From a virus (taxonomy: Duplodnaviria; Heunggongvirae; Uroviricota; Caudoviricetes): DNA of 10,785 nucleotides. The number at the start of each line of letters is the position of its first letter. The first letter of the stretch is position 1. The DNA is taken from the IMG/VR virus record IMGVR_UViG_3300029647_000054, positions 1 to 10,785 of that record. The stretch is one strand, 5' to 3'. Both the position numbers and the translations under genes were made by a program. The notes below the pieces were generated by a model. The model searched no databases, had not been told where the DNA came from, and saw only the letters and a list, made by a program, of their open reading frames with translations. This document shows positions 1 through 10,785 of this stretch, piece by piece.

Positions 1-42
1 CAGTTGTTCAGGCTGGCGTGCGAATTGTAAACCAGAATGCCA

Positions 43-71
43 GGAAAAAACAAAACCCGCCGAAGCGGGTT
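43..71 (-). terminator. Rho-independent terminator at the 3' end of the hok transcript
   Basis: Inverted repeat 54-60 / 65-71 (AACCCGC / GCGGGTT) with 4-nt loop; on the minus strand the hairpin is followed by TTGTTTTTT (53-43); lies about 70 nt 3' of the hok stop. Confidence 0.55.
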
Positions 72-139
72 AAGTGCGGGTGCGTTGAGGATGCCTGACT
101 CATCAGAGGTGGCGAGGGATTTCTCCCTCGCCAGGTCTC

Positions 140-295
140 TTACTCCTCAGGTTCGTAAGCTGTGAAGACAGTGACCTCCGTCTGGCCGGTTCGGATTCGT
201 ACCTCGCAGAGGTCTTTCCTCGTTACCAGTGCCGTCACAATGACGGTAATACAGATGACGATCAGGGCGACTAACATCGCCTTTTGCTGCTTCAT
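140..295 (-). CDS. hok: Hok/Gef family type I toxin (51 aa, HokD/HokC-like small membrane toxin)
   Basis: In-frame internal ATG at 295 of the 70-aa track ORF; product MKQQKAMLVALIVICITVIVTALVTRKDLCEVRIRTGQTEVTVFTAYEPEE closely matches my recollection of HokD/HokC; SD AGGAG about 7 nt upstream; single TM helix. Confidence 0.85.
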   Translation of the reverse strand: MKQQKAMLVALIVICITVIVTALVTRKDLCEVRIRTGQTEVTVFTAYEPEE

Positions 296-352
296 AGCCT
301 GCTTCTCCTTGCCTTTCGGCGTGTAAGAGGCTAACCTACATGTGACTAGCAT
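140..352 (-). CDS. mok: Mok-like in-frame upstream reading frame that couples hok translation (70 aa)
   Basis: ATG at 352 in the same frame as hok, as recalled for chromosomal mokC/hokC pairs; existence as a separate regulatory frame is inferred from the hok/sok paradigm. Confidence 0.5.
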   Translation of the reverse strand: MLVTCRLASYTPKGKEKQAMKQQKAMLVALIVICITVIVTALVTRKDLCEVRIRTGQTEVTVFTAYEPEE

Positions 353-410
353 GAAATTGGCCTCAGATTAATGTTAAGCGTCCTGCAAGACGCATAATGT
401 TAACTGGGGC
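340..410 (+). ncRNA. sok: Putative Sok-like antisense RNA overlapping the mok start region (approximate)
   Basis: Inferred from hok/sok architecture only; candidate promoter TTGCCT (309-314) - 17 nt - TAACCT (332-337) on the plus strand; no clean terminator seen, ends not determined. Confidence 0.25.
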
Positions 411-510
411 TTTTCTCTGTCTGCCTTACGGTGGCATGCCCGAGGCAGACAGCCTCAAGCACCCGCAGCAATTCTACTTAACTCTCGCTTTACCGCAAAC
501 CGTTTTTACC

Positions 511-532
511 CGATATGGGAATTCCCATATCG
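511..532. repeat. Perfect 22-bp palindrome CGATATGGGAATTCCCATATCG
   Basis: Read directly: 11-nt arms exactly reverse-complementary with no spacer; not followed by a U-run on either strand. Confidence 0.8.
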
Positions 533-540
533 TAATGAAT

Positions 541-645
541 TCAGTTCCCTAGTCGATCCATCAAAAACACAACCAGGCAGTAAACACCCACAACAGCAAT
601 AACAGCCAGCGCACCTTCCATTGCCAGTGAGATATCATCCGACAC
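541..645 (-). CDS. Small hydrophobic peptide (34 aa, GTG start), single predicted TM helix
   Basis: Not in ORF track (too short). SD AAGGAGG 4 nt upstream of GTG at 645; product VSDDISLAMEGALAVIAVVGVYCLVVFLMDRLGN; start codon uncertain (alternative ATG at 621). Confidence 0.3.
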   Translation of the reverse strand: MSDDISLAMEGALAVIAVVGVYCLVVFLMDRLGN

Positions 646-680
646 ATTCCCTCCTTTGGTGTTAATCCCGGCGAACGCTT

Positions 681-764
681 TTACCCACACCGACAAATAA
701 CATATACTAAAAAAGCGATAGCCATAGCAACGCCTGTAATTGCAAATGCTTCAGGCCAGATCAT
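681..764 (-). CDS. Small hydrophobic peptide (27 aa), single predicted TM helix
   Basis: Not in ORF track. ATG at 764 overlaps the TGA of the upstream DUF551 gene (ATGA); strong SD GGAGG with 7-nt spacing; product MIWPEAFAITAVAMAIAFLVYVICRCG. Confidence 0.4.
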   Translation of the reverse strand: MIWPEAFAITGVAMAIAFLVYVICRCG

Positions 765-1438
765 TGGCGCACCTCCTGCGGCGGTTCTGGTAGCGGCATC
801 CAGTGGGTTACTTTCGATGCCGGTTCTTCCCCATCGTCAGTAACTGCCCACCATTTGTTTCTCGACCAATCGTAATACCCTTCGAAGGTATCGCACTCAG
901 TCCAGCCGTAAGACTTACCCCAACACCAAACATACTGTTTATCGTCCGGAATTCGCTCACTACAGCTTATCCAACCATCCGGAGTTACCGGAGAGCTGGT
1001 TGACGCTTCCGGGATTTTCCGAAAATTATTGGTTGACGAATCTTTATTTTCCCGAAAGTTTCCGGACTGAAGCATGGCTTCGCGGCAATCGTTCCAGCCT
1101 GTAGCGTATGCAGCCGCTTTGCTGCTGCCTTCAACTGGCGCATCCTGCCAATACATTTCTTCCGGCACTACCGGCGCTGGAGGGGCGGCGTAAATGCCCT
1201 CTATCACTAAATGTTTGCGCTCAAAATCATCTGGCTCTCGATGATATACGTAACTCCAATCACCAAGGTTATCATTGCGCCTGCAACGGAAACCTATCGG
1301 CTCTGCTTCCAGCGATGCCAGAGCAATTCGTGCCAGTTCTTCCGCTTCTTCTGCTGGCAGTACAACGTTGCTACCCGGTCCGTATGTTTCGCGCCACTGC
1401 TTGATTGTCAGCAGTCGCTCTTTGGTAATAGTGGTCAT
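761..1438 (-). CDS. DUF551 domain-containing phage protein (225 aa)
   Basis: C-terminal Trp-rich segment (DGWISCSERIPDDKQYVWCWGKSYGWTE...VTHWMPLPEPP) matches the DUF551 pattern I recall from E. coli prophage proteins; ATG start verified. Confidence 0.7.
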   Translation of the reverse strand: MTTITKERLLTIKQWRETYGPGSNVVLPAEEAEELARIALASLEAEPIGFRCRRNDNLGDWSYVYHREPDDFERKHLVIEGIYAAPPAPVVPEEMYWQDAPVEGSSKAAAYATGWNDCREAMLQSGNFRENKDSSTNNFRKIPEASTSSPVTPDGWISCSERIPDDKQYVWCWGKSYGWTECDTFEGYYDWSRNKWWAVTDDGEEPASKVTHWMPLPEPPQEVRQ

Positions 1439-1440
1439 AG

Positions 1441-1629
1441 CTATTTCACCTTAATCTCAACATTTCGCAGCTTTAGCTCTACTGGCAGGTCTGACTTTCC
1501 GGTTAATGCTAATGCGAGATTTTCTGGAGTAATGAGAGCAGTTATTGTTCTACCCATCGCAAGGCGGATAATCAGCCTTATCTCTTCGTCACAAGCGCCA
1601 GGGCGAATAATTGATATTTGTCCGTTCAC
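1441..1629 (-). CDS. Hypothetical small protein (62 aa, GTG start)
   Basis: GTG at 1629 one nt after the upstream TGA, preceded by SD AAAGGAGAG at 5-nt spacing; same geometry as the ATG at 2484. The track's ATG at 1671 would overlap the upstream gene by 41 nt and lacks an SD. Confidence 0.5.
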   Translation of the reverse strand: MNGQISIIRPGACDEEIRLIIRLAMGRTITALITPENLALALTGKSDLPVELKLRNVEIKVK

Positions 1630-1630
1630 C

Positions 1631-1663
1631 TCACTCTCCTTTAATGCGAATGCCAGCGGCGCG
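1631..1663. repeat. Module-junction repeat, copy 1 (about 33 bp, 31/33 identical to copy at 2486-2518)
   Basis: TCACTCTCCTTTAATGCGAATGCCAGCGGCGCG; encodes the shared C-terminal AGIRIKGE tail plus stop and the SD for the next gene. Confidence 0.8.
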
Positions 1664-2164
1664 GGAATCATTCCATCGCTTTACTTCTTCACGAATTACG
1701 TCAATGCATTCTTTCGAATCCATTAGGTAATCTTCATCAAAAAGACGTTCCTGTTCGTTTTCTATCGCAACAATGATTGCTTCAACTAACTTTTGTGCCT
1801 GAGAACCACTTTCTAACTCTGCAATGCGCTGTTTTACGGTATCAAGTTCAATCGATAATTTTTCCAACTGCTCTTTATGCTTCTTGTATTCCTGATATGC
1901 GTGCCAGGACTGACCTTTGCGCACACTATCAGTAATATCAGTAATCTGTTCTGGTGTTAGCGTAGTCAGTGGCTGTGCTGGGAAAATCAGCACTTTCCCG
2001 GAATCCCAATCAAAACCAGCGTGAATTGACTGAACCTCAACTGATGGTGTTGAACCGATGCGACCAGGCGAATGAACAACGATCGTTACATCCATATCTC
2101 GACGATGGCTGTGGTTGCTGGACAAAATACGATTCACCAACTCAGAAAATTTGGAAAATTTCAT
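1631..2164 (-). CDS. Hypothetical protein (177 aa) with coiled-coil C-terminus ending AGIRIKGE
   Basis: ATG at 2164 overlaps the upstream TGA (ATGA), SD AGAGGG at 7 nt; the track ORF's extra 43 N-terminal residues would overlap the upstream gene; last 8 residues identical to the Ea22-like protein. Confidence 0.6.
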
Positions 2165-2484
2165 GTTGATCCCTCTTTCTCTCCCCGGATAATTCTGTTG
2201 CACACATCCACACACTCGTCGCAGATGAAAACGGCGTCCCCAGCAATTAACTTTTTGACGGCGTACTGGGATTTGTTGCAGAAGCTGCAACAAAGTGTTC
2301 GCCTGACTGATAAGGATGGAGCGCCAGATGTCAGCCGCTCCATATCGTTCTTGCGACGCAATATCACACGGCTGAACTCAACCAGTTTCTCCGGGGATAT
2401 CTCCTCCTCCGTAGCGAGCGTCTCTAGTCGTTCGAGTATGTTGAAGGCTTTTTCCTGGGTAATAGCAGAATGCGATGTGGTCAT
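2161..2484 (-). CDS. Small protein with ClpX N-terminal zinc-binding-domain-like C4 zinc finger (107 aa)
   Basis: [38 protein letters not shown] aligns with ClpX N-terminus ([37 protein letters not shown], from memory) with identical CxxC-x18-CxxC spacing; ATG at 2484 with SD AAAGGAGAG. Confidence 0.75.
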
Positions 2485-2485
2485 C

Positions 2486-2518
2486 TCACTCTCCTTTGAT
2501 GCGAATGCCAGCGACGCG
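2486..2518. repeat. Module-junction repeat, copy 2
   Basis: TCACTCTCCTTTGATGCGAATGCCAGCGACGCG; same coding/SD content as copy 1. Confidence 0.8.
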
Positions 2519-3181
2519 TGGCACATTAACTTCCACGATGCGCACATTTGGTTTGTACATCTCAATCGCTGTCAGCCAGTCAGCGCCAGTCATGCGCTTT
2601 TCTGCATCGCCATTAGTCCACTTAACCGGTACACCAATAGCCTTCATCGCGATTTCTATTTCCCCGGCAATGGTGCTTTTTCCGCAACCAGTAAAACCAG
2701 ATACAACGACCAGAACTTCACCTTTGGCTGGTTTTATTTCCCGCGCTTCCAGTTCTGCTATGCGCTTACTTCCATCCGAGATAACACCTTCGTAATACTC
2801 ACGCTGCTCGTTGAGTTTTGATTTTGTCTCCTCAAGCTCAACGCGCAGCTTCCCTACCGTTAACGCAATATCCTCGTTCTCCTGGTCGCGGCGTTTGATG
2901 TATTGCTGGTTTCTTTCCCGTTCATCCAGCAGTGCCAAGACAGCAGTCGGATTGGCCTCTGCTATGAACTCAGCGTTTGCATAAGCCTGAGCATCTGTTT
3001 CAACCAGGCAGTTAACATGACATTCTGCAATCACGCCACCGGGTTCTCCTTTCCATTTTTGACAAACAAAAACTCCTGTTAAATTGCCGTGCTGGTTAAC
3101 AGATGTATGCCCTACGATGTAGCTTCCTTTAGTTGCTTTCTCTGCCTTTTCACGCAGTGCCTGATAGTTAATCTCGCTCAC
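2486..3181 (-). CDS. Ead/Ea22-like protein with C-terminal Walker A (P-loop) motif (231 aa, GTG start)
   Basis: N-terminal region with [20 protein letters not shown] motif typical of Ea22-like proteins as I recall them; central coiled coil; [10 protein letters not shown]-loop; GTG overlaps upstream TGA (GTGA) with SD GGAGGA at 6 nt. Confidence 0.7.
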
Positions 3182-3402
3182 TCTTCATCCTCCAAGTCGG
3201 CAACGGCGTCCATCACATCAGAACCGCGAATAACCTCAAAAGCACGGCAGGCCATTTGAAATACCAGTTGCTCTTGCGGGTGAGGAGACTCCCAATATTT
3301 GAAGCCTGGGCGATGCGTGTACCCCATCATTGAATAAAAATCACCAGCAAGCTTAATCGCGGCATCGACAAGCTCTCTGTTAGTCATTCTTTTTCCGCTC
3401 AC
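3178..3402 (-). CDS. Hypothetical small protein (74 aa, GTG start)
   Basis: GTG at 3402 overlaps the upstream TGA; SD AAGGAGG at 6 nt; no family recognised. Confidence 0.5.
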   Translation of the reverse strand: MSGKRMTNRELVDAAIKLAGDFYSMMGYTHRPGFKYWESPHPQEQLVFQMACRAFEVIRGSDVMDAVADLEDEE

Positions 3403-3749
3403 TGGTTGCCTCCTTTGCGAAGCTGGGCGGCTAACTCATCACATATGTGCGTCAAAGAACAAAGTTTGATTGATGGATGTTCGCGCATCATCTCTACCCC
3501 CTGCGCCCGCACTTCAGACAGGAAAGCATCGGTGGCTGGCATATTTCCTGTTGCCTTCATTGCCTCCAAAATAACCAGAACGCCATCTCGCCCAATCTCC
3601 TCGCAGATAACCTCGGTGCTGTCGCCAACAACATCGCAAAATGCCTGAACTGCTTTACGAGCCAGCGCATCTTCCGCCCTGTGAAACGCCTCGCGGTTGA
3701 AATTTTCATATCCCGTCATTGGACCGGCAATATAAACTCTGACCCTCAC
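3399..3749 (-). CDS. DUF4406-like (nucleoside 2-deoxyribosyltransferase-like fold) phage protein (116 aa, GTG start)
   Basis: N-terminal VYIAGPMTG motif characteristic of DUF4406 as I recall it; rest of protein did not match my memory of the family; GTG overlaps upstream TGA with SD AGGAGG at 7 nt. Confidence 0.55.
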   Translation of the reverse strand: MRVRVYIAGPMTGYENFNREAFHRAEDALARKAVQAFCDVVGDSTEVICEEIGRDGVLVILEAMKATGNMPATDAFLSEVRAQGVEMMREHPSIKLCSLTHICDELAAQLRKGGNQ

Positions 3750-4138
3750 TCCATCACCTCCTGAAAGTTTCCCCGATAGAACGCCAGCACACGCTGCATA
3801 ACTTCGCTCCTCCTGCTCTCACGACAAATTATGTTCTGCCGTCTGTTGTAACGACGTATTTCTCCGTCAGGTAACTTTCGAATCAGTGTCGGGTCAGCAG
3901 CCTTCTCCGGTGTCTTACGCCATACGCGATACGCCTGCTCTGATGGAAATACCCCGCAACCAGAGAGCCAGACATCACCACTGGCCGCAAGCGCACCAGA
4001 TAAACGACGAATAGCGGTCTTACTGACACCCGTTTTATCTGCCAGTTGTCGAAAAGTTTCTCGTCCGCTCAGGCGCACGAATTCCACAATGCGCGCCTTC
4101 ACTTCTTCCCGCTCTTCTGGTGTAAATACTTTTGCCAT
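3746..4138 (-). CDS. Putative HTH DNA-binding protein (130 aa)
   Basis: ATG at 4138 with SD GGAGG at 5 nt (track start at 4153 is TTG); helix-turn-helix-like segment FRQLADKTGVSKTAIRRLSG. Confidence 0.6.
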   Translation of the reverse strand: MAKVFTPEEREEVKARIVEFVRLSGRETFRQLADKTGVSKTAIRRLSGALAASGDVWLSGCGVFPSEQAYRVWRKTPEKAADPTLIRKLPDGEIRRYNRRQNIICRESRRSEVMQRVLAFYRGNFQEVME

Positions 4139-4153
4139 AAGCGCCTCCGGCAA

Positions 4154-4879
4154 TCACTTTTCCGATACAACACGGCGGGAAGAATCAGTAATCTGTCGAA
4201 CAATATCCCGGTGCTTGTTCAGCTCCCGCAGCGCGGCGCAGACTCGCTCCCACTTCTGAACCTGACCTTTTGCCCGGCGCAGCTCGCGGTTAGCCACATG
4301 CAGCGATGGTAAAATCAGACCATCCGGATGTTTTCTGGTGAACGACGGCTGTGACTGCACTGTGACCGCCACACTTTCCGTTTTTATTTCTTCCTGTGTT
4401 TCTGCTTCCCGGACAGGTAACGCAACACCTGCTGGCTGAGGAAAGGCTTTACCGTCGGTTTCCGCTACGGATGCAGCTTCCGGCTCTGCCGGTAAATCAG
4501 CGCCCGGTATGCAGTAACGAAATTTACCGCCCTGATTCACGCGAATCAGACGCCCTTTGCTGATTGCCATGGCCAGCGATGAATTCGCCCGGCGGGAGGT
4601 AATCCCGAACATCAGTGCCAGCTCATCCGCCGTTTGTGGGCCATGTTGTTCAATCGCCTCAGTCAGCATTTGCGCTGTCACTTTCGGTACCGGTGACACC
4701 GGTTCACTTTCACCAGCCTGAATCAGCCGCCACATCGAACCCTTGTTATCCGCTTCACCGCGGCGCTTCAGTTTCCACAGTTCGTTGACCGCATCTTCAC
4801 GGCTGATTCCAAGGCGGGACGCCACTACCTGTGAAGAGGCTCTTTTCAGTGCTTTCAGTGCGTCAAATACGGTTTCCAT
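4154..4879 (-). CDS. Hypothetical phage protein with two winged-helix-like segments (241 aa)
   Basis: ATG at 4879 with SD GGAGG at 8-nt spacing (track start at 4897 is TTG and contains that SD); two internal segments resembling winged-helix DNA-binding folds. Confidence 0.65.
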
Positions 4880-4912
4880 TAAAATTTCCTCCGACAAAAT
4901 CGTTTCTCAGAT

Positions 4913-5575
4913 TCAAATAAAACCAGCTGCCTTCCGGCGTTCGTATTCCTGTTTCAGCCGTTCAATTGGCGTTGGCCCTTGCGGGTGTTTCGCCCCTTCC
5001 AGTTGTCGTCGCACTGGCGGAACACTCATCCCGTTACCAACATGCTTTGCCCATTTCGTCAGTTGCCGTTCCGCAAGTCGTTTTAACTCACCCTGCGTCA
5101 TCTGGCGCTCAATCCCTCTGGTACGCATTTCGAGGCAGATGTGGTACAGCACAGGCTGTGGCCACGGGTATTTATCACTCCCGTCGTATCGCCAGGATTC
5201 ATTGCGCCAGCGCCGGTACTCTTCCATCACGGCATCCACCGTAAGACCAAATGGATTTGCCCCACTCTCCGAAATCAGCGCAACAAACTCAGCCAGGTCC
5301 GGGGGCCACGTTTCACCCGCCCGGCAGCGGTCCATGCACTGACGGCAGACCAGCCGGATTTGCTGTTCAGTCATCGTGCCAATCTGGGCAATCCAGAGCT
5401 TCGAAGGTGCGGCCCCGTTCTTCTGAGTCCAGCGGTTCGAATACACCTCCCCCATAAGCTCCCACAGCTTCCAGGCCATTTCCGTTGCTGATAAATCCGT
5501 TGTCTCGTTCCCACTGTTCGCGTGCTGCCCGGATTTCCTGAACTGCCCGTGATGCCGTGCCACCTGATGCTGCAT
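4913..5575 (-). CDS. Replication protein P-like (lambda P family helicase loader), up to 220 aa
   Basis: Similarity to lambda P as recalled (W-x-A...TMxEQ, FxP-P--F-A, YPW motifs); ATG at 5575 has SD AAGGGGG at 6 nt; start uncertain (alternatives 5479, 5455); overlaps O-like frame. Confidence 0.7.
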   Translation of the reverse strand: MQHQVARHHGQFRKSGQHANSGNETTDLSATEMAWKLWELMGEVYSNRWTQKNGAAPSKLWIAQIGTMTEQQIRLVCRQCMDRCRAGETWPPDLAEFVALISESGANPFGLTVDAVMEEYRRWRNESWRYDGSDKYPWPQPVLYHICLEMRTRGIERQMTQGELKRLAERQLTKWAKHVGNGMSVPPVRRQLEGAKHPQGPTPIERLKQEYERRKAAGFI

Positions 5576-6404
5576 GGCTTACCCCCTTGCTGACTGGTTT
5601 TACCTGTGTCCTGACGTGCTGCACGTGGCGGGCAAATTTCTGCTCCCACTGAACCTGTGTGAAAACCTTCCCCTCCGCCATCCAGTAATCCCGGAATGCG
5701 GCAAGCTCTGCAGGTGTAAATTCCGGCTCAGGCAGAGCCATACCCCACACTGCTGCCCGTTGTCGAAAATCCGACGACGGCTGCCAGACAGTAGTCATCG
5801 AAAATTTCCCGATCGGTTCGCTCAGGCCGTCCAGGTATTCAGGTTCGGCTGTCTGCAACGGCGCACCATGCGACTCACCGGTTGGAGCACTCTCGCGCAT
5901 GCGCGCGTTATGTGTGGGGTTTAATTCTGTATCTGTATCTTTATCTGTCGTGACTTGTCGTGACAGATGCGTGACACGTCGTGACTCATCGTGACAATCA
6001 GCATCATATTTCCGCAGCTTTTCGCGCTCCCGCTGCGCTCTCTTGCGCTCTGCCGGGGATTTTGCCGTTTGCGAAACGTTACCATTGTCCTCTTTCAGCA
6101 CCTGACGTTTTTCCCATCCGGAAATAAGGTCACCATCCAGAACCCGCCCCTGCATTGCATGCAAAATTGAATCAATTACGTCTTCCGTCACATCAAGCGC
6201 ACTTGCTAAATCTTCCGTCGTGACATCAATGTGACCACGTAGTGACACGCCGTGACATGTCGTGACATTTCGTGACGCACTCACCAGAAGGTGGATATAC
6301 ACCGCCATCACTGTTGCGATTGGCTGTCCTGAGACCCTGGCAATGGTTCGCCATTTGGGATCATTTGGCATGTCATGCCACAATCTGAGCCAGGCATTAG
6401 CCAT
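5367..6404 (-). CDS. Replication initiator / replisome organizer (lambda O-like) with internal iterons (345 aa)
   Basis: N-terminus MANAWLRLWHDMPNDPKWR resembles phage replisome-organizer N-domains; iteron clusters inside the coding region; ATG at 6404 with SD GAGG at 5 nt (track start 6410 is GTG). Confidence 0.75.
   Translation of the reverse strand: MANAWLRLWHDMPNDPKWRTIARVSGQPIATVMAVYIHLLVSASRNVTTCHGVSLRGHIDVTTEDLASALDVTEDVIDSILHAMQGRVLDGDLISGWEKRQVLKEDNGNVSQTAKSPAERKRAQREREKLRKYDADCHDESRRVTHLSRQVTTDKDTDTELNPTHNARMRESAPTGESHGAPLQTAEPEYLDGLSEPIGKFSMTTVWQPSSDFRQRAAVWGMALPEPEFTPAELAAFRDYWMAEGKVFTQVQWEQKFARHVQHVRTQVKPVSKGVSHAASGGTASRAVQEIRAAREQWERDNGFISNGNGLEAVGAYGGGVFEPLDSEERGRTFEALDCPDWHDD
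5948..5995. repeat. Iteron cluster 1: five direct repeats of (T/G)CGTGAC at 10-11 bp spacing, preceded by a 6-bp periodic (TATCTG-like) tract
   Basis: CGTGAC at 5949, 5959, 5970, 5980, 5990; adjacent tract 5924-5947; read directly. Confidence 0.7.
6220..6276. repeat. Iteron cluster 2: six direct repeats of GTGAC at 10-11 bp spacing
   Basis: GTGAC at 6220, 6231, 6242, 6252, 6262, 6272; read directly; about 270 bp from cluster 1, both inside the O-like gene. Confidence 0.7.
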
Positions 6405-6472
6405 ACTCACCTCATCTGATACCGAACTTTACCCTCGAACATCCGGAAGAAATCCGGCATGAATATTGTTGG

Positions 6473-6898
6473 TCAATGCACGACAACAGCATTACCAGGC
6501 TGACCACCACTGTTAGTCAGGGTGCCCCAGGCGATCGCCGCTGCGACAAAATCATCCACATCTTTCACCAGCCGATCCCTCCGTTCGACGATCTCACGGT
6601 AATATTCAGAGCTGTGACTGCGCATACGGGCCACCAGCAAAGGCGGCATCGCCTTTTCGATCGCCGGTAACAGAGCCTGCATTTTTTCAACAGCATCAGG
6701 GGTGTCTTTATCCAGCCAACGGAAAATTTTCTGGGTATTACGGGCCAGGGCTTCCGGATGGCTGTCGTCATACAGTTCCGGGAACGTCATTCCCAGCTCG
6801 AAATACGCTTTGGTAATTTTCGCAGCCGGTACTTTTTCGCCGTCCGGATGCGCCCAGACATTCATCGCCATGCGGATGTGTTCATGCTTGATTTTCAT
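6473..6898 (-). CDS. YdaT-like protein in the cII position (141 aa)
   Basis: Starts MKIKHEHI and ends VVVH as I recall for Rac YdaT; ATG overlaps the Cro-like gene's TGA (ATGA); family assignment from memory only. Confidence 0.55.
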   Translation of the reverse strand: MKIKHEHIRMAMNVWAHPDGEKVPAAKITKAYFELGMTFPELYDDSHPEALARNTQKIFRWLDKDTPDAVEKMQALLPAIEKAMPPLLVARMRSHSSEYYREIVERRDRLVKDVDDFVAAAIAWGTLTNSGGQPGNAVVVH

Positions 6899-7158
6899 GA
6901 ATCAACTCCCAGCGCGGGTTGTGTGTTAGCCTGATAGTCAACAGGTATGCCATCGGTTGGGTTGGGGTAAGTACTGCTATCAATCTCGTGCGGGGTCACT
7001 ACCCACCCTGTTGCTTCACACCAGCGTAAAACTTTCCCCCCCGTAAGTTTCGCCCGTCCAGTAATAACATGGCTTACCATCCCTTGGGTTACCCCAACAA
7101 TTTCAGCAAAATCTTTCTGGGTTATACGGGAATGATGCAAATATTCTCCAAGATTCAT
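6895..7158 (-). CDS. Cro-like HTH transcriptional regulator (YdaS/Cro family, 87 aa)
   Basis: HTH segment QKDFAEIVGVTQGMVSHVITG; divergent from the CI-like repressor across an operator-containing intergenic region; SD GAGGTG 4 nt before ATG. Confidence 0.75.
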   Translation of the reverse strand: MNLGEYLHHSRITQKDFAEIVGVTQGMVSHVITGRAKLTGGKVLRWCEATGWVVTPHEIDSSTYPNPTDGIPVDYQANTQPALGVDS

Positions 7159-7188
7159 TGTTCACCTCATGTTATGTGACCATGAATA

Positions 7189-7230
7189 TTAATAGCATTG
7201 TTATTTTTAAAAGTAAATAGCACTGCTATT
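7189..7230. promoter_or_regulatory. OR-like region: two 15-bp palindromic operators plus a PR-like promoter for the Cro-like gene
   Basis: Operators AATAGCATTGTTATT (7191-7205) and AATAGCACTGCTATT (7216-7230); on the minus strand TTTACT (-35, 7217-7212), 17-nt spacer, TATTAA (-10, 7194-7189). Confidence 0.65.
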
Positions 7231-7265
7231 TCAAAGAGATTAATAATCTTATTAGAATTGAAGGT

Positions 7266-7766
7266 ATGAAAAGAAAACCCCTGTCAGAGATCGACCTGCA
7301 AGCCGCCCAGAGACTGAAAGAAATCTGGACGACGAAAAAAACTCAACTTGGGTTAACCCAAGAGCGTGCGGCAGAAATTCTGGGTTTTTCGACACAAGGG
7401 GCAGTAAGCCATTATCTAAATGGTCAGACACCTTTAAATCTAGAGGCTGTTATCAAGTTCGCTGGGTTGCTACAAGTTCCGCCTGAGTCAATTAGACCAG
7501 ATATGGCAGACTTGTTACGAATTGTAAGGATGTACCCCCAAGAACTGCAGCAGGATAATGTTGTCGCTTTACCCGCAGAGATGGAACAATCGGAAAACGA
7601 ACTTCCGTTTAATATAGAACCTATAGAGCGAGATTTGATCCAGACGTTCAGGGCTTTCCCAAAAGAAGACAAAGAGAAAATGCTTAAGGAAATGAAGGAG
7701 AAAAAAGAATCAATTGAAGAAACCGTTGCGCGGTGGCTAGAGGCGCAAAAAGGTCTTCGCGCCTAA
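7266..7766 (+). CDS. paaR: CI-like HTH repressor, regulator of the three-component TA module (PaaR-like, 166 aa); no S24 peptidase domain
   Basis: N-terminal HTH (LGLTQERAAEILGFSTQGAVSHYLNG); divergent from Cro-like gene; directly upstream of antitoxin-toxin pair; C-terminus too short and lacks a LexA-like autocleavage domain. Confidence 0.75.
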   Translation: MKRKPLSEIDLQAAQRLKEIWTTKKTQLGLTQERAAEILGFSTQGAVSHYLNGQTPLNLEAVIKFAGLLQVPPESIRPDMADLLRIVRMYPQELQQDNVVALPAEMEQSENELPFNIEPIERDLIQTFRAFPKEDKEKMLKEMKEKKESIEETVARWLEAQKGLRA

Positions 7767-7783
7767 TCTGAGGAGGTTAGAAC

Positions 7784-7975
7784 ATGAGTACAGTCCTTTC
7801 CCCGATAATTTCAGAATTTGAAACAATCGAACAAGAAAACAGCTATAACGAATGGTTACGCACCAAAGTGGCAGCAAGCCTCGCAGACCCCCGTCCTGCA
7901 ATTCCGCATGACGAAGTAATGGCTGAAATGGAAAACCTTATTGCGCAAATAGCTTCGACGAACAGGAGTGAGTAA
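7784..7975 (+). CDS. paaA: PaaA-like antitoxin (63 aa)
   Basis: 63-aa acidic protein immediately upstream of and overlapping (TAATG) the ParE toxin gene; matches my recollection of the PaaA2 antitoxin from E. coli O157 paaR2-paaA2-parE2; SD GAGGAGG at 8 nt. Confidence 0.7.
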   Translation: MSTVLSPIISEFETIEQENSYNEWLRTKVAASLADPRPAIPHDEVMAEMENLIAQIASTNRSE

Positions 7976-8265
7976 TGCTGCCCATTTTATGGCTACCTTC
8001 TGCGCGTGATGATTTGCGTCAGATCGTAGCCTATATTGCCAAGGAAAACCCTCCCGCTGCACGTAGACTAAAAATACGCATTGAAACATCAGTTTTGTCA
8101 CTTACTGAACACCCTTACCTGTATCCACCAAGCGAAAGAGCCCTAGGCCTTCGTGAGATAGTGACCCATCCTAACTACATAATACTTTACCGAGTAACAG
8201 CATCTAACATCGAGATCGTAAATGTAGTTCACTCACGAAGGCAGTATCCAAACAAAAGCTGTTAA
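7975..8265 (+). CDS. parE: ParE/RelE-superfamily toxin (ParE-like, 96 aa)
   Basis: Typical ParE sequence features (LPILWLPSARDDLRQIVAYI...EHPYLYPPSE...REIV); start overlaps antitoxin stop by 1 nt. Confidence 0.8.
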   Translation: MLPILWLPSARDDLRQIVAYIAKENPPAARRLKIRIETSVLSLTEHPYLYPPSERALGLREIVTHPNYIILYRVTASNIEIVNVVHSRRQYPNKSC

Positions 8266-8280
8266 TCATTCCTACCAACA

Positions 8281-8304
8281 ACCACCTTCGGGTGGTTTTT
8301 TTTT
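8281..8304 (+). terminator. Rho-independent terminator after parE
   Basis: ACCACC-TTCG-GGTGGT hairpin followed by a run of nine T. Confidence 0.8.
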
Positions 8305-8320
8305 CTTACCTCCAAAAAAC

Positions 8321-8362
8321 AATAGCATTACTATTTACAGAATAAAATAGCAGTGCTATTGT
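8321..8362 (+). promoter_or_regulatory. OL-like region: two 15-bp palindromic operators plus a PL-like promoter driving the dicB-type operon
   Basis: Operators AATAGCATTACTATT (8321-8335) and AATAGCAGTGCTATT (8346-8360); TTTACA (-35, 8334-8339), 17-nt spacer, TATTGT (-10, 8357-8362); mirrors the OR architecture. Confidence 0.65.
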
Positions 8363-8538
8363 TTATTCATCACCCACCCTCCCCACAGAATGCAGGGCAA
8401 TACTTCGAGTTACCCGGCAGTGGTCAGGGGTTAAGTAGCCAGCCCGAGGCGTATGAACATGACGGCGGGAACACTTTGTATAACAGCGCAGCAGGTTTTT
8501 GTTCCGCTACCCCGGCGTTAAGGGGAAATGAGGTCAGC

Positions 8539-8691
8539 ATGGATACTATCGAGCTTGGCAACAGCGAATCTCTGGTATGCGGCGTGTTTCCCAACCAGGA
8601 CGGCACGTTTACCGCGATGACGTATACCAGAAGCAAAACGTTTAAAACGGAAGCTGGCGCGCGTCGCTGGTTAGCAAGAAGCTCTGACTGA
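8539..8691 (+). CDS. Small protein (50 aa), first gene of the PL-type operon; possibly YdfA/YdaF (DUF1391)-like
   Basis: ATG with SD GAGG at 5 nt; in frame with the track ORF whose GTG start lies inside the operator; family assignment is positional only. Confidence 0.4.
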   Translation: MDTIELGNSESLVCGVFPNQDGTFTAMTYTRSKTFKTEAGARRWLARSSD

Positions 8692-8789
8692 TGAAGGTTA
8701 GTAATTAAAGAGTTCTCCACAGGCGAAGTGGAATACGTTCGCAGGACACGGGTAAGCATTCGGCATGCTCTTTAACAATCTGGGTATTC

Positions 8790-9236
8790 CTAACCACAAA
8801 GGAATCGCATCAATTTGGATTTTGCAGACAGTTTCTCTTGTTGTTCTACGGAGATTCCTATTTTGATCTGGGTTTTTAAGATTGCGATATCTTTAAGCGA
8901 CGACCAAATATTATCATCTGTTTTTTCCAGGAGCTTTAACTGCATTTTCAATTCCGAATCGGAATATTTTTCTGCATCATCATAAAGCTGCAGATATTCT
9001 GCGGATTTTCTCATTGCGTTACCTGACTTTTGTCCGAATCCGTAAATCGTTTGAACGGTTGCTATCACAACAATGAGAACTCCAGAAACTTCAGGAATAA
9101 ATCCACCAATGACAGATGAACCGAGGATAATACTCACCACTGAGAAAAGTTTATCGAGACGACCAGTCGCTACAGAGAATAGTTGTTCAAGAAAATAACC
9201 ATATAAAACCCTGTCAAGAATATCATCCCGGTCCAT
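8790..9236 (-). CDS. AT-rich two-TM membrane protein with coiled-coil-like C-terminus (148 aa); candidate superinfection-exclusion (sieB-position) protein
   Basis: Opposite strand to the surrounding operon; SD AGGTG at 8 nt; hydrophobic segments LFSVVSIILGSSVIGGFI and VLIVVIATVQTIYGF; clearly lower GC than neighbours; function inferred from position. Confidence 0.55.
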   Translation of the reverse strand: MDRDDILDRVLYGYFLEQLFSVATGRLDKLFSVVSIILGSSVIGGFIPEVSGVLIVVIATVQTIYGFGQKSGNAMRKSAEYLQLYDDAEKYSDSELKMQLKLLEKTDDNIWSSLKDIAILKTQIKIGISVEQQEKLSAKSKLMRFLCG

Positions 9237-9295
9237 ATATCATCACCTGCTTGTTTGATTGTTGCTGTTCCCCCTCTCCTCTGAAGGAGCTGGAG

Positions 9296-9484
9296 ATGGT
9301 TTTGGTCGAATGTTTTTCTCAGGTATATGTTTCCTGGTATTCGGAATGTCCGCCCTGTCCGCAGGCTTACCAGTACCTGAACAATTCTTTTGAACCACCA
9401 TATAAAACACCTTCCTGTTGTTGGGGATATCCAGATTATACAGATTTCCTGTTATTGGGGAATGACGGAAACCACCTCGCCTGA
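9296..9484 (+). CDS. Small Cys-rich protein (62 aa), hypothetical
   Basis: ATG with SD GAAGGAG at 6 nt; six Cys including CPPCP and SCCW; preferred over the overlapping low-complexity minus-strand ORF. Confidence 0.4.
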   Translation: MVLVECFSQVYVSWYSECPPCPQAYQYLNNSFEPPYKTPSCCWGYPDYTDFLLLGNDGNHLA

Positions 9485-9699
9485 CGTGGTTAAAAGCAGG
9501 CACACAACACGAAAGCGCACGGCGAGATTCCTTTGCATATAAGGCTTGTCGTTAAATTTCTTCGACCGTGCACTTCCGGTTGTGGCAGTCCGCGAAATGG
9601 CGCGGCGGTAAGTATGGCTGGGGCTTCCTCCATTGCTCCAGAAAATGCACCGGGTCGTCAGGTTGACCATACGCTTAAGTGACAGCCCCGCCACAATAC

Positions 9700-9757
9700 C
9701 CATGTGTAGTATTTGGTGGCATCAGTTCTACTCCGTGACTGCTCTGCCACCCTTTTT
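9700..9757 (+). ncRNA. dicF: DicF-like small RNA (ftsZ-targeting sRNA family) with intrinsic terminator
   Basis: TTTGGTGGCATCAGTTCTACTCCGTGACTGCTCTGCCACCCTTTTT closely matches my recollection of K-12 DicF, with compensatory stem changes; sits directly upstream of dicB as in Qin. Confidence 0.7.
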
Positions 9758-9761
9758 AAAG

Positions 9762-9922
9762 TGAATTTTGTGATGCGGTGAATGCGGCTATGCGCACGCG
9801 GAACAGTTAAAACCGTAAAGTGGTCTTTTACGGGGCGTAACGGGCATCCTTCTGTATTCCGGCGTTAATTGTTAACTGGTTAACGTCACCTGGAGGCACC
9901 AGGCACCGCATCACAAAATTCA
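9762..9922 (+). repeat. Long-range 19-nt perfect inverted repeat (TGAATTTTGTGATGCGGTG at 9762-9780 and its reverse complement at 9904-9922) bracketing 123 nt between dicF and dicB
   Basis: Read directly; would form a 19-bp RNA duplex in the operon transcript. Confidence 0.7.
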
Positions 9923-9939
9923 TTGTTGAGGACGCGATA

Positions 9940-10128
9940 ATGGAAACGTTATTACCAAACGTTAATACGTCTGAAGGTTGTTTTGATATTGGTGTTCTGC
10001 TCAGTAACCGGGAGTTTACGGAAGATGCCATTAAGATGAGAAAATATGAACCTTATCTTCTCAATGATAATTCCATACTTTCCAGAATTGCCCTTCTTGA
10101 ACTTGGTATTATCGGAGAACAGCAGTGA
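9940..10128 (+). CDS. dicB: Cell division inhibitor DicB (62 aa)
   Basis: N-terminal 35 residues (METLLPNVNTSEGCFDIGV...FTEDAI) closely match K-12 DicB as recalled; C-terminus diverges; SD GAGGA at 7 nt. Confidence 0.85.
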   Translation: METLLPNVNTSEGCFDIGVLLSNREFTEDAIKMRKYEPYLLNDNSILSRIALLELGIIGEQQ

Positions 10129-10313
10129 CTTCAGCATTTGCACTGGTGATGACCGTTTTTCTTATAACGGGTGAGCCACAAAATGTGATTACCGGAATTT
10201 ATGACAGTAAGTCATCCTGCATTCAGGTAAGGGACGAACAAAAAATCCCCGGTGAATGCCTCCCGTTAAAAAAAGTATCGCTGAACCTGAATAACGAAAT
10301 ACCGGCTGGATAA
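10125..10313 (+). CDS. ydfD: YdfD-like small membrane/lysis protein (62 aa, GTG start)
   Basis: GTG overlaps the dicB stop (GTGA), SD GGAGAA at 5 nt; N-terminal hydrophobic helix; assignment by position in the dicB operon and size. Confidence 0.5.
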   Translation: MTSAFALVMTVFLITGEPQNVITGIYDSKSSCIQVRDEQKIPGECLPLKKVSLNLNNEIPAG

Positions 10314-10408
10314 CCCGCCAGCCATATTAACACCATACCAACGGATTAAAAATGCCAGCAATGGCAGGGATTCGTTCACCCTGAAATCTGTAATGAGGTT
10401 AAAACAAA

Positions 10409-10785
10409 ATGAGTAAAGTCTTTATTTGCGCCGCTATTCCTGACGAACTGGCAACAAGGGAAGAAGGCGCTGTGGCTGTAGCCACAGCCATTGAAGCTGG
10501 CGACGAACGCCGTGCTCGAGCAAAATTTCACTGGCAATTCCTGGAACATTATCCGGCTGCTCAGGACTGCGCTTATAAATTTATTGTCTGCGAGGATAAA
10601 CCCGGCATACCCCGCCCTGCCCTCGATTCATGGGATGCTGAATATATGCAGGAAAACCGCTGGGATGAGGAGTCTGCTTCCTTTGCCCCGGTTGAGACTG
10701 AATCAGATCCGATGAACGTCACTTTTGACAAGCTGGCCCCTGAAGTACAGAACGCTGTCATGGTTAAGTTCGACACATGTGAAAA
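10409..10785 (+). CDS. Partial CDS (runs off the window end, at least 125 aa), YdfE-position hypothetical protein
   Basis: ATG at 10409 with SD GAGG; open frame to the window end; not in the track because no stop is reached. Confidence 0.55.
   Translation, partial: MSKVFICAAIPDELATREEGAVAVATAIEAGDERRARAKFHWQFLEHYPAAQDCAYKFIVCEDKPGIPRPALDSWDAEYMQENRWDEESASFAPVETESDPMNVTFDKLAPEVQNAVMVKFDTCE

Follow-up and report, generated by a model that had tools for sequence, protein, structure and literature searches.

The 10,785 nucleotides (nt) of viral DNA analyzed here (the window; positions 1 to 10,785 of the Caudoviricetes record IMGVR_UViG_3300029647_000054 in IMG/VR) come from a CP-933P-like lambdoid element. 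In the early, rightward gene array of this element, a gene on the minus strand of the window encodes a protein of 107 amino acids (aa), in which an N-terminal helical hairpin and a linker are followed by a zinc-binding domain (ZBD) of the ClpX type. We tentatively propose that this protein may be a soluble mimic of the ClpX docking domain, which would divert N-domain-dependent clients from ClpXP. The domain call itself is not new and is already in public annotation: the RefSeq name is "ClpX C4-type zinc finger protein" (older records carry the misnomer "carboxylate--amine ligase"), the identical 107-aa protein is recorded on 302 contigs, and the protein has a full-length match to PHROG 6797 (residues 1-105 on positions 1-105 of the 107 in the profile, E = 6.5e-58). 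PHROG 6797 is listed as "function unknown," and a full-text literature search found no study of the function of a PHROG 6797-type protein.

A ClpX-type zinc-binding domain without the AAA+ motor

The C-terminal domain matches the Pfam family PF06689 (zf-C4_ClpX) over residues 65-100 with a score of 57.5 bits (gathering cut-off of 27, E = 1.2e-15), and the relatives of the protein score between 49 and 66 bits. A phmmer search against all PDB sequences returned only ClpX. The top matches were the Escherichia coli ZBD structures 2DS5 and 1OVX (E = 1e-14), with residues 62-102 of the 107-aa protein aligned to residues 10-50 of ClpX. Here and below, ClpX residues are numbered with the Met included, and all counts of family members are taken from an alignment of 25 of them. 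The four Cys residues C66, C69, C88, and C91 have the CxxC-x18-CxxC spacing of ClpX C15, C18, C37, and C40 and are invariant in 25 of 25 members, and 28 of the 40 core residues are identical to those of E. coli ClpX. An AlphaFold2 model of the protein, built on the 25 family members, has a mean predicted local distance difference test (pLDDT) score of 76, with the blocks of the ZBD at 79-85. When compared by Foldseek, the predicted ZBD agrees with 2DS5, 2DS6, 2DS7, and 2DS8 to 0.7-1.0 Å over 38 residues (68-71% identity, probability of 1.00), and the domain is predicted to have the treble-clef ZBD fold.

The protein stops 16 residues past the last Cys, and its scores against the NCBIfam equivalogs of ClpX (41.9 and 39.1 bits) are far below their cut-offs (359 and 371, respectively). 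Because of this early end and these low scores, we conclude that the 107-aa protein has no AAA+ motor. A Pfam scan of the protein likewise gave no AAA hit. A C-terminal LRVVK-like (XB-type) tail was not found in the 107-aa protein, and the C-terminus is variable across the family. These results bear out the first-pass annotation of the window, which had described a free-standing homologue of the ClpX ZBD with identical Cys spacing, most of the intervening residues conserved, and no AAA+ module; the PF06689 match is the alignment to a ClpX ZBD profile.

Conservation of the ClpX ligand groove

Several residues of the ClpX ZBD are implicated in the binding of its ligands. L12, L13, and H23 are required for binding of the MqsA degron, H23 is also required for binding of the SspB tail, and the L12S substitution impairs MqsA binding by ClpX (PMC8808172). 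The strongest chemical-shift perturbations in ClpX are those of D3, K4, L13, K27, I29, and A30 (PMC8808172). In addition, F17 and I47 (F16 and I46 in the Met-less numbering) make up a hydrophobic side pocket that is used by trigger factor and overlaps the sites for lambda O, SspB, and RssB (PMC7804408). In the protein of the window, the ClpX residue is present at the positions equivalent to F17 (F68, conserved in 25 of 25 members), I29 (I80, 23 of 25), L13 (L64, with L in 22 of 25), I47 (I98, with I or V in 22 of 25), A30 (A81, 19 of 25), and K27 (K78, with K in 18 of 25). Except for the invariant F68, these positions are nearly invariant or have conservative replacements in the family. The equivalent of H23 is Y74 (H in 16 and Y in 5 of the 25 members), and the equivalent of L12 is T63 (T in 18 of 25). 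On this comparison of sequences, the phage ZBD has kept the ligand groove of ClpX largely, but not wholly.

A hairpin found only in this family

The first-pass annotation had drawn attention to the C-terminal 40 residues of the protein. The ZBD is indeed there, but a conserved N-terminal hairpin of 60 residues had been overlooked. In the AlphaFold2 model, the hairpin consists of two helices and is joined to the ZBD by a flexible linker, which differs in both length and sequence from member to member of the family. Given the predicted template modeling (pTM) score of 0.35, the model gives no confident packing of the hairpin against the ZBD. The hairpin residues T9, E11, R19, L20, E21, L23, T25, E26, E27, I29, L34, R44, K45, D47, R50, and L51 are invariant across the alignment. 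A HMMER search with residues 1-61 against 1.84 billion representative proteins resulted in eight matches, all of which belong to the same family: the complete ones have the hairpin-linker-ZBD architecture, and the remainder are truncated or frameshifted copies. Among the matches are a branch from Salmonella (P0121, of 113 aa) and, from the P2-like phage P88, the gp19 type, at 40-50% identity. Relatives of the hairpin outside of the family were found neither among these representatives nor in Pfam, PHROG, NCBIfam, and a PDB profile search, and Foldseek comparisons to PDB and BFVD gave no relative of the hairpin. A motif in the second helix (K/E-L-V-E-C-S-R-V-x-L-R-R) is retained even by very distant members, L084 and P88 among them; in the remote viral member L084, it is kept as ELVRCSRIVRRSNREMKGL. 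The hairpin is the defining part of the family and is under at least as much constraint as the ZBD. Because the architecture of hairpin plus ZBD is conserved, the unit of selection is the two-domain protein and not a bare ZBD.

An old capture maintained by selection

The DNA that encodes the ZBD is 62% identical to E. coli clpX (45% at third codon positions), the encoded protein is 67% identical, and the codon is shared at 13 of the 28 residues that are identical between the phage ZBD and E. coli ClpX. The low identity of the DNA, and of the third codon positions in particular, points to an old capture, after which the likeness of the protein was maintained by selection. Together with the few shared codons, it rules out a recent capture from E. 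coli clpX. The comparison does not single out enterobacterial ClpX as the source of the domain: some metagenomic ClpX ZBDs are equally close or closer to it (30 of 40 versus 28 of 40 residues).

Between the window and P88 versions of the gene, the ratio of nonsynonymous to synonymous substitution rates (dN/dS) is ~0.2 for the ZBD and for the whole gene, with dS of the hairpin being saturated. Among 20 distinct alleles of the window gene type (family A), dN/dS in the hairpin is 0.29, compared with 0.86 in the linker (residues 53-63) and 0.65 in the ZBD; these are crude pooled values of non-independent pairs, with probable recombination among a few allele types, and are descriptive only. The 107-aa protein is under purifying selection.

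Distribution of the family and of other ZBDs outside ClpX

The family is found only in temperate elements of Enterobacteriaceae, namely, P1-like and ~106-110-kb phage-plasmids, P2-like elements of the P88 type, and a few lambdoid prophages. By megablast, the window gene type is present in 108 of 5,426 complete E. coli genomes. Of its 109 places in these genomes, 103 are on plasmids (those listed are mostly of ~90-110 kb) and 6 are chromosomal, and its matches in the phage database are the P1-like phage D6, CMS-2020a, and PhiR41_1. The P88-type gene is present in a further 112 E. coli genomes (121 places, all chromosomal), where it sits 3′ of replication gene A, ParM, and a partition protein and 5′ of the portal gene. 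Both types together account for ~220 of the 5,426 genomes (~4%, ~2% for each type). On plasmid pR9-658-1 (NZ_CP107165.1, L003, 111 kb), the ZBD gene lies ~4 kb from ISEcp1-blaCTX-M-15, in the same accessory region.

A scan of IMG/VR revealed at least 440 viral stretches with relatives of the ZBD. Neighbors were counted in the best 80 of these. An Ea22-like gene lies upstream at 23 of the 31 family-A loci, and at 30 of the 32 P88-type loci, the upstream neighbor is in a region of partition proteins. Downstream, the genes vary and code for hypothetical proteins of 173 or 210 aa or for a DUF4752 protein; this variability is taken from annotated records, detection of downstream open reading frames (ORFs) in family A being imperfect where starts overlap. 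We rejected a conserved phage partner gene, with the upstream gene differing by phage type and the downstream gene varying within types. That no phage gene travels universally with the ZBD gene points to a target in the host. Membership in the defense or anti-defense systems modeled by PADLOC was also rejected, as the ZBD protein and four of its neighbors had no PADLOC match.

ZBDs of this type are also carried by other proteins. The 65-aa "Clp protease" of Pseudomonas phage PP9W2 (PHROG 12435) and gp258 of Bacillus phage G are free-standing ZBDs, and Caulobacter phage Cr30 has a ZBD ORF of ~72-79 aa (L006:2522-2761; NC_025422 81470-81709; PF06689, E = 2.3e-16), of which RefSeq annotates only a 41-aa C-terminal fragment (2636-2761). 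In proteins of the viral contigs L081, L085, and L087, the C-terminal ZBD directly follows one N-terminal helix. PF06689 without a AAA+ module is also found in the proteins P0031, P0035, P0037, P0067, and P0110. In a 303-aa viral protein of IMG/VR contig 3300047160_015042 (L079), a ClpX-type ZBD is located near the C-terminus, after ~237 residues that we take, by eye, to be ParB-like. The proteins of PP9W2 (PHROG 12435), Cr30, L081, L085, and L087 and the bacterial "ClpX C4-type zinc finger proteins" P0031, P0035, and P0110 are like the 107-aa protein in having PF06689 without AAA+, often after a short helix, but they do not have the hairpin of the family; L084 alone shares the motif of the second helix. 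The ZBDs of Cr30 and L081 are slightly closer to one variant in a ClpX panel, which is presumably alphaproteobacterial, and those of the P88 and Salmonella types are slightly closer to E. coli ClpX, with margins of 1-3 of 40 residues. Such differences suggest that ClpX ZBDs may have been captured independently by phages and matched to their hosts.

A possible decoy for ClpXP clients

If the 107-aa protein is a mimic of the ClpX docking domain, it would be expressed with the early lytic genes, as is suggested by its location behind the replication genes in the rightward operon. Its C-terminal ZBD would fold around zinc, would probably dimerize like the ClpX ZBD, and would present a ClpX-like hydrophobic groove to the tails of the adaptors SspB and RssB. 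The same groove would also dock N-domain-dependent substrates, such as initiators of the lambda O type, MuA, UmuD′, and unfolded antitoxins such as MqsA. With these ligands bound away from the ClpX motor, N-domain-dependent clients would be spared selectively, and ssrA-type substrates, which are recognized by the pore, would be unaffected. More speculatively, the hairpin may assemble dimers of the ZBD into multimers (a four-helix bundle, for example) or may add a second contact; since there are three ZBD dimers on a ClpX hexamer, a competitor would need avidity to be effective. Candidate beneficiaries in this element are the PaaA2 antitoxin and the initiator at the lambda O position, and on P1-type plasmids, Phd may be another.

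Free ZBD reportedly blocks the degradation of lambda O and MuA, a result said to come from work by Wojtyra and colleagues in 2003. Purified ClpX ZBD, when supplied in trans at 5-20 µM, competitively blocks RssB/sigma-S degradation by 0.6 µM ClpXP (PMC7226468, Fig. 1d). Without the ZBD, ClpX cannot degrade lambda O (PMC7804408), and the antitoxin MqsA is likewise targeted only if the ZBD is present (PMC8808172), while ClpX without the ZBD still degrades ssrA substrates (PMC7226468, PMC8808172). Of the candidate beneficiaries, PaaA2 is degraded by ClpXP and ClpAP (PMC8630535), and Phd is cited as a ClpXP substrate (PMC10286901).

Several observations weigh against a decoy. At the level of the groove, the position of ClpX P32 is occupied by D or E throughout family A, that of L12 is Thr in most family members, and one subgroup (P0020 and P0022-P0026) is more diverged, with the equivalents of K27L, A30T, and Y35C. 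Within family A, dN/dS of the ZBD exceeds that of the hairpin, and the ZBD replacements cluster at the surface positions 65, 74, 75, 84, 93, 94, and 97 and at position 101. Seven of these eight positions have no synonymous changes; position 94, the equivalent of ClpX L43, has some and is Asp in one allele group. A strict mimic of a host surface that does not vary would not be expected to show this pattern, and a conserved hairpin is without a role in a pure decoy model. Biochemically, the affinities of the ZBD for its ligands are weak, and inhibition in trans took an ~10-30-fold excess of ZBD (PMC7226468); therefore, a decoy would need high expression or avidity. As for the clients, the defense-related one that was found, in CmdTAC, has as its ClpXP degron a C-terminal Ala-Ala that bypasses the ZBD, redundancy with ClpAP limits the benefit for PaaA2 (PMC8630535), and P88 has the ZBD gene without an annotated type II toxin-antitoxin system, carrying only a hok-like gene.

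Alternatively, the zinc finger may have been co-opted for a purpose unrelated to ClpX, as a dimerizing, peptide- or nucleic-acid-binding module of an early phage regulator that acts, for example, on replication, partition, or the lysis-lysogeny switch. We consider such a regulator somewhat unlikely. It would account for the non-AAA+ architectures of PF06689 described above (the ParB-like L079 among them), for the partition and replication genes that adjoin the gene in the P88 type, for the preponderance of plasmids among the family-A places, and for the diversifying surface residues. It does not account for the fact that the residues that are retained are those of the ClpX ligand groove, and the 67-78% identity to ClpX is far above what a constraint on the fold alone would need. 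The closeness of the Cr30, L081, P88, and Salmonella types to one or another ClpX variant also speaks against a role apart from ClpX, if weakly. Decay of a captured, functionless clpX fragment, to which the short length of the gene and its highly mosaic accessory region might have pointed, is effectively refuted by conservation: the ORF and its Shine-Dalgarno (SD) sequence are intact, two domains are kept over three phage types and Salmonella, dN/dS is well below 1, the gene is present in ~220 E. coli genomes, and the N-terminal domain is not derived from ClpX.

Two other explanations give the hairpin a role of its own. The protein could be a bifunctional tether or adaptor, in which the hairpin binds one specific partner (a host or phage protein, or ClpX or ClpP) and the ZBD binds a degron-like peptide of a second protein, so that the protein joins the two or caps, and thereby protects, the degron of a phage protein. 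The stronger constraint on the hairpin than on the ZBD within family A fits a tether, as does the persistence of the helix-2 motif in L084 and P88; varying alleles of the ZBD surface would be expected if they track different peptide clients, and SPO1 Gp53 is a precedent for phage adaptor-like modulators of Clp unfoldases. We nevertheless hold a tether to be unlikely, given that no conserved phage-encoded neighbor presents itself as a client, that no homology between the hairpin and a binding domain was detected, and that known ClpX adaptors dock onto the ZBD and contain none. The protein could also form mixed dimers with the ClpX ZBD, or dock on the ClpX ring, and thereby place its hairpin on the hexamer, where it would block, slow, or re-target ClpXP. 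The dimers of the ClpX ZBD are reportedly very stable, again according to the 2003 work of Wojtyra and colleagues, and if they are, homodimers should dominate; the Asp at the L43 equivalent in one allele group also argues against mixed dimers, which we judge to be quite improbable. In their favor, the hydrophobic core of the ZBD and its C-terminal helix are nearly as in ClpX (I87, V92, I99, and others), a conserved extra domain fits a payload delivered to ClpX, and ZBD dimerization is well documented (PMC7226468, PMC8808172). The decoy for N-domain-dependent clients remains our working, if tentative, interpretation.

Genomic context of the ZBD gene

The ZBD gene is part of an uninterrupted minus-strand array, downstream of the replication genes and on the same strand as them (Table 1). 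In order along the minus strand, YdaS and YdaT, which are analogues of Cro and CII, are followed by a DnaT-domain protein at the position of lambda O and a lambda P homologue. Next come DUF1627, DUF977, and DUF4406 proteins, an unannotated 74-aa ORF (3178-3402), and an Ea22-like protein, and then the ZBD protein, two proteins of unknown function, and a DUF551 protein. Between the replication genes and the ZBD gene, there are 7 terminator-like sites versus 6.8 expected, and no terminator- or promoter-like signal rises above chance. As read from the sequence, the stop codon of the Ea22-like gene (2488-2486) is 1 base ahead of the ATG of the ZBD gene, whose own stop codon shares an ATGA with the ATG of the next gene (2164-2162). 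The tight coupling of the ZBD gene with both flanking genes is thus directly visible in the DNA. The first-pass annotation had described it as translationally coupled to an upstream Ea22-like P-loop protein, and this coupling appears to hold, with the SD sequence located inside the Ea22-like gene. The Ea22-like protein has a C-terminal, Walker-A-like GFTGCGKS and weak matches to P-loop kinases, adenylyl-sulfate kinase among them (E of ~2e-3). The 177-aa downstream neighbor is not kept in relatives of the ZBD gene. On the opposite strand, the ORFs at 2072-2821 and 1969-2169 (plus) are without a family match and, for this reason, are probably spurious shadows of the minus-strand genes. An Rfam scan found no RNA family at the locus of the ZBD gene.

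The ZBD gene had further been assigned to the same operon as an O-like initiator, with stabilization of that initiator as its rationale. The same-strand, gap-free array supports the operon; the initiator is an O analogue by position only, with no lambda O family domain in it and the DnaT domain as its sole match. Moreover, the replication modules that adjoin relatives of the ZBD gene, in phage-plasmids as well as in P2-like phages, are quite unlike this one. A link to a lambda O family initiator as a feature of the family was rejected, and because the replication module differs between elements, stabilization of O is not a general rationale.

TABLE 1 Features of the window, ordered by position
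Feature	Position	Strand	Evidence or remarks
hok/gef-family toxin gene	140-352	minus	PF01848, E = 2.7e-22
sok antisense RNA	290-464		Rfam RF01794, 117.6 bits; paired with the hok/gef gene
Junction element, copy 2	1626..1672	minus	At the end of the downstream 177-aa gene
177-aa protein	1631..2164	minus	PHROG 6026, function unknown; downstream neighbor, ATGA overlap with the stop of the ZBD gene
ZBD gene (107 aa)	2161..2484	minus	ATG 2484-2482, TGA 2163-2161; hairpin, linker, and C-terminal ClpX-type ZBD
ClpX-type ZBD, residues 63-103	2176..2298	minus	PF06689; PDB 2DS5/1OVX; Foldseek
Cys ligand codons	C66, 2287-2289; C69, 2278-2280; C88, 2221-2223; C91, 2212-2214	minus	
Flexible linker, residues 53-62	2299..2328	minus	pLDDT of <50 at residues 57-60
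N-terminal helical hairpin, residues 8-52 (predicted helices 10-25 and 31-52)	2329..2463	minus	AlphaFold block-mean pLDDT of 72-87
Junction element, copy 1 (47 nt)	2481..2527	minus	Direct repeat D1, 85% identical to 1626-1672
SD sequence AAAGGAGAG	2489..2497	minus	4 nt 5′ of the ZBD-gene ATG, within the 3′ end of the preceding gene; read from sequence
Ead/Ea22-like protein	2486..3181	minus	PF13935, E = 3.4e-41; upstream neighbor of the ZBD gene
Lambda P homologue	4913-5575	minus	PF06992; ORF overlaps the O-position ORF by ~200 nt
Protein at the lambda O position	5367-6410	minus	DnaT DNA-binding domain PF17948, E = 7.5e-17, residues 203-268
YdaS, analogue of Cro	6895-7158	minus	
YdaT, analogue of CII	6473-6898	minus	
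paaR2, helix-turn-helix repressor	7266-7766	plus	
PaaA2 antitoxin	7784-7975	plus	PF21217, E = 2.9e-22
ParE2 toxin	7975-8265	plus	ParE, E = 4e-18
DicF small RNA	9701-9752	plus	Rfam RF00039, 62 bits (gathering cut-off of 48); prophage-borne cell-division inhibitor RNA

The start of the ZBD gene lies in a junction element that is present in two copies in the window and covers the 3′-terminal codons of a gene of the Ea22 type (which encode the tail ..AGIRIKGE*), the SD sequence AAAGGAGAG, and the start codon that follows. A near-identical junction is located upstream of the ZBD gene in L001, a related one is at the end of an Ea22-like gene in phage D6, and the element recurs at the ends of other Ea22-like genes in related loci. 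In contig L008, the module that is found downstream of the ZBD gene in the window lies upstream of it, which shows mosaic exchange. The junction element looks like a recombination linker that shuffles accessory cassettes between lambdoid phages and phage-plasmids. At its second copy, the minus-strand ORF 1441-1671 (ATG at 1671) has a probable start at GTG 1629, after the junction SD sequence, which would give a protein of 62 aa; in the longer form of this ORF, the match to PHROG 1222 is confined to residues 16-76.

On the plus strand, paaR2-paaA2-parE2 form a complete three-component toxin-antitoxin and immunity module (7266-8265), and the layout of paaR2-paaA2-parE2 and YdaS-YdaT matches that of CP-933P in E. 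coli O157:H7. An obligatory pairing of the ZBD gene with a type II antitoxin that is degraded by ClpXP is not supported: paaA2-parE2 is present in the window and in L001, and P88 has no annotated system of this type.

Comparison with known modulators of proteolysis and significance

In its Pfam family, the spacing of its four Cys residues, its identity (67-71%), and its predicted fold (within 1 Å), the phage ZBD is like that of ClpX. It differs from ClpX in having neither a AAA+ motor nor a linker to one, in its C-terminal location after an unrelated hairpin, in the replacement of L12 by T, of P32 by D or E, and, in the window, of H23 by Y, and in a surface that varies among phage alleles. Other phage proteins act on proteolysis by different means. 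Lambda RexB, a membrane protein, is encoded in the immunity region. RexB, T4 PinA, and T7 Gp4.5 are small phage proteins that have been proposed or shown to blunt ATP-dependent proteolysis, and the effects of such inhibitors of ClpP-family and Lon proteases include protection of lambda O and of antitoxins (PMC10286901). We saw no sequence relation between these three proteins and the phage ZBD protein, and none of them is a captured receptor domain of a protease. Gp53 of phage SPO1 is closer to the role proposed here in that it engages a Clp unfoldase and re-tunes it for the benefit of the phage, but it binds ClpC and stimulates its ATPase as an adaptor, does not mimic a ClpC domain, and belongs to another host and protease (PMC6873191). 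The anti-adaptors IraD, IraM, and IraP are small proteins that selectively spare one ClpXP client, sigma-S, by interfering with its delivery via RssB and the ZBD. They bind RssB by unrelated folds, whereas the phage protein, being a copy of the receptor, would act as a competitor.

It is possible, if doubtful, that the docking domain of ClpX was captured time and again by temperate phages of several bacterial lineages and fused to short helical modules for multimerization or targeting, resulting in a "receptor-decoy" class of proteins. If so, this class would selectively shut down the branch of ClpXP proteolysis that depends on adaptors and the N-domain while leaving bulk quality control intact, and antitoxins, replication initiators, or stress regulators, for example, could be kept alive. 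It would be the first case in which a phage disarms a AAA+ protease by means of a copied substrate-receptor domain from that same protease. The clients of ClpXP include sigma-S, components of the SOS response, cell-division proteins, several antitoxins, and replication proteins of phages and plasmids, and the ZBD is the hub for the selection of adaptors and of a subset of substrates. A decoy would therefore also be a natural, encoded tool with which N-domain-dependent and pore-dependent ClpXP proteolysis could be separated in vivo, and the hypothesis is testable cheaply with existing ClpXP assays. Clinically relevant phage-plasmids, P1-like and related ones, commonly carry the gene (one of them along with CTX-M-15), and it is also common in P2-like prophages. 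Given its presence in ~4% of E. coli genomes and on clinical phage-plasmids, any effect of this protein on addiction, stress tolerance, or prophage induction would be epidemiologically relevant.

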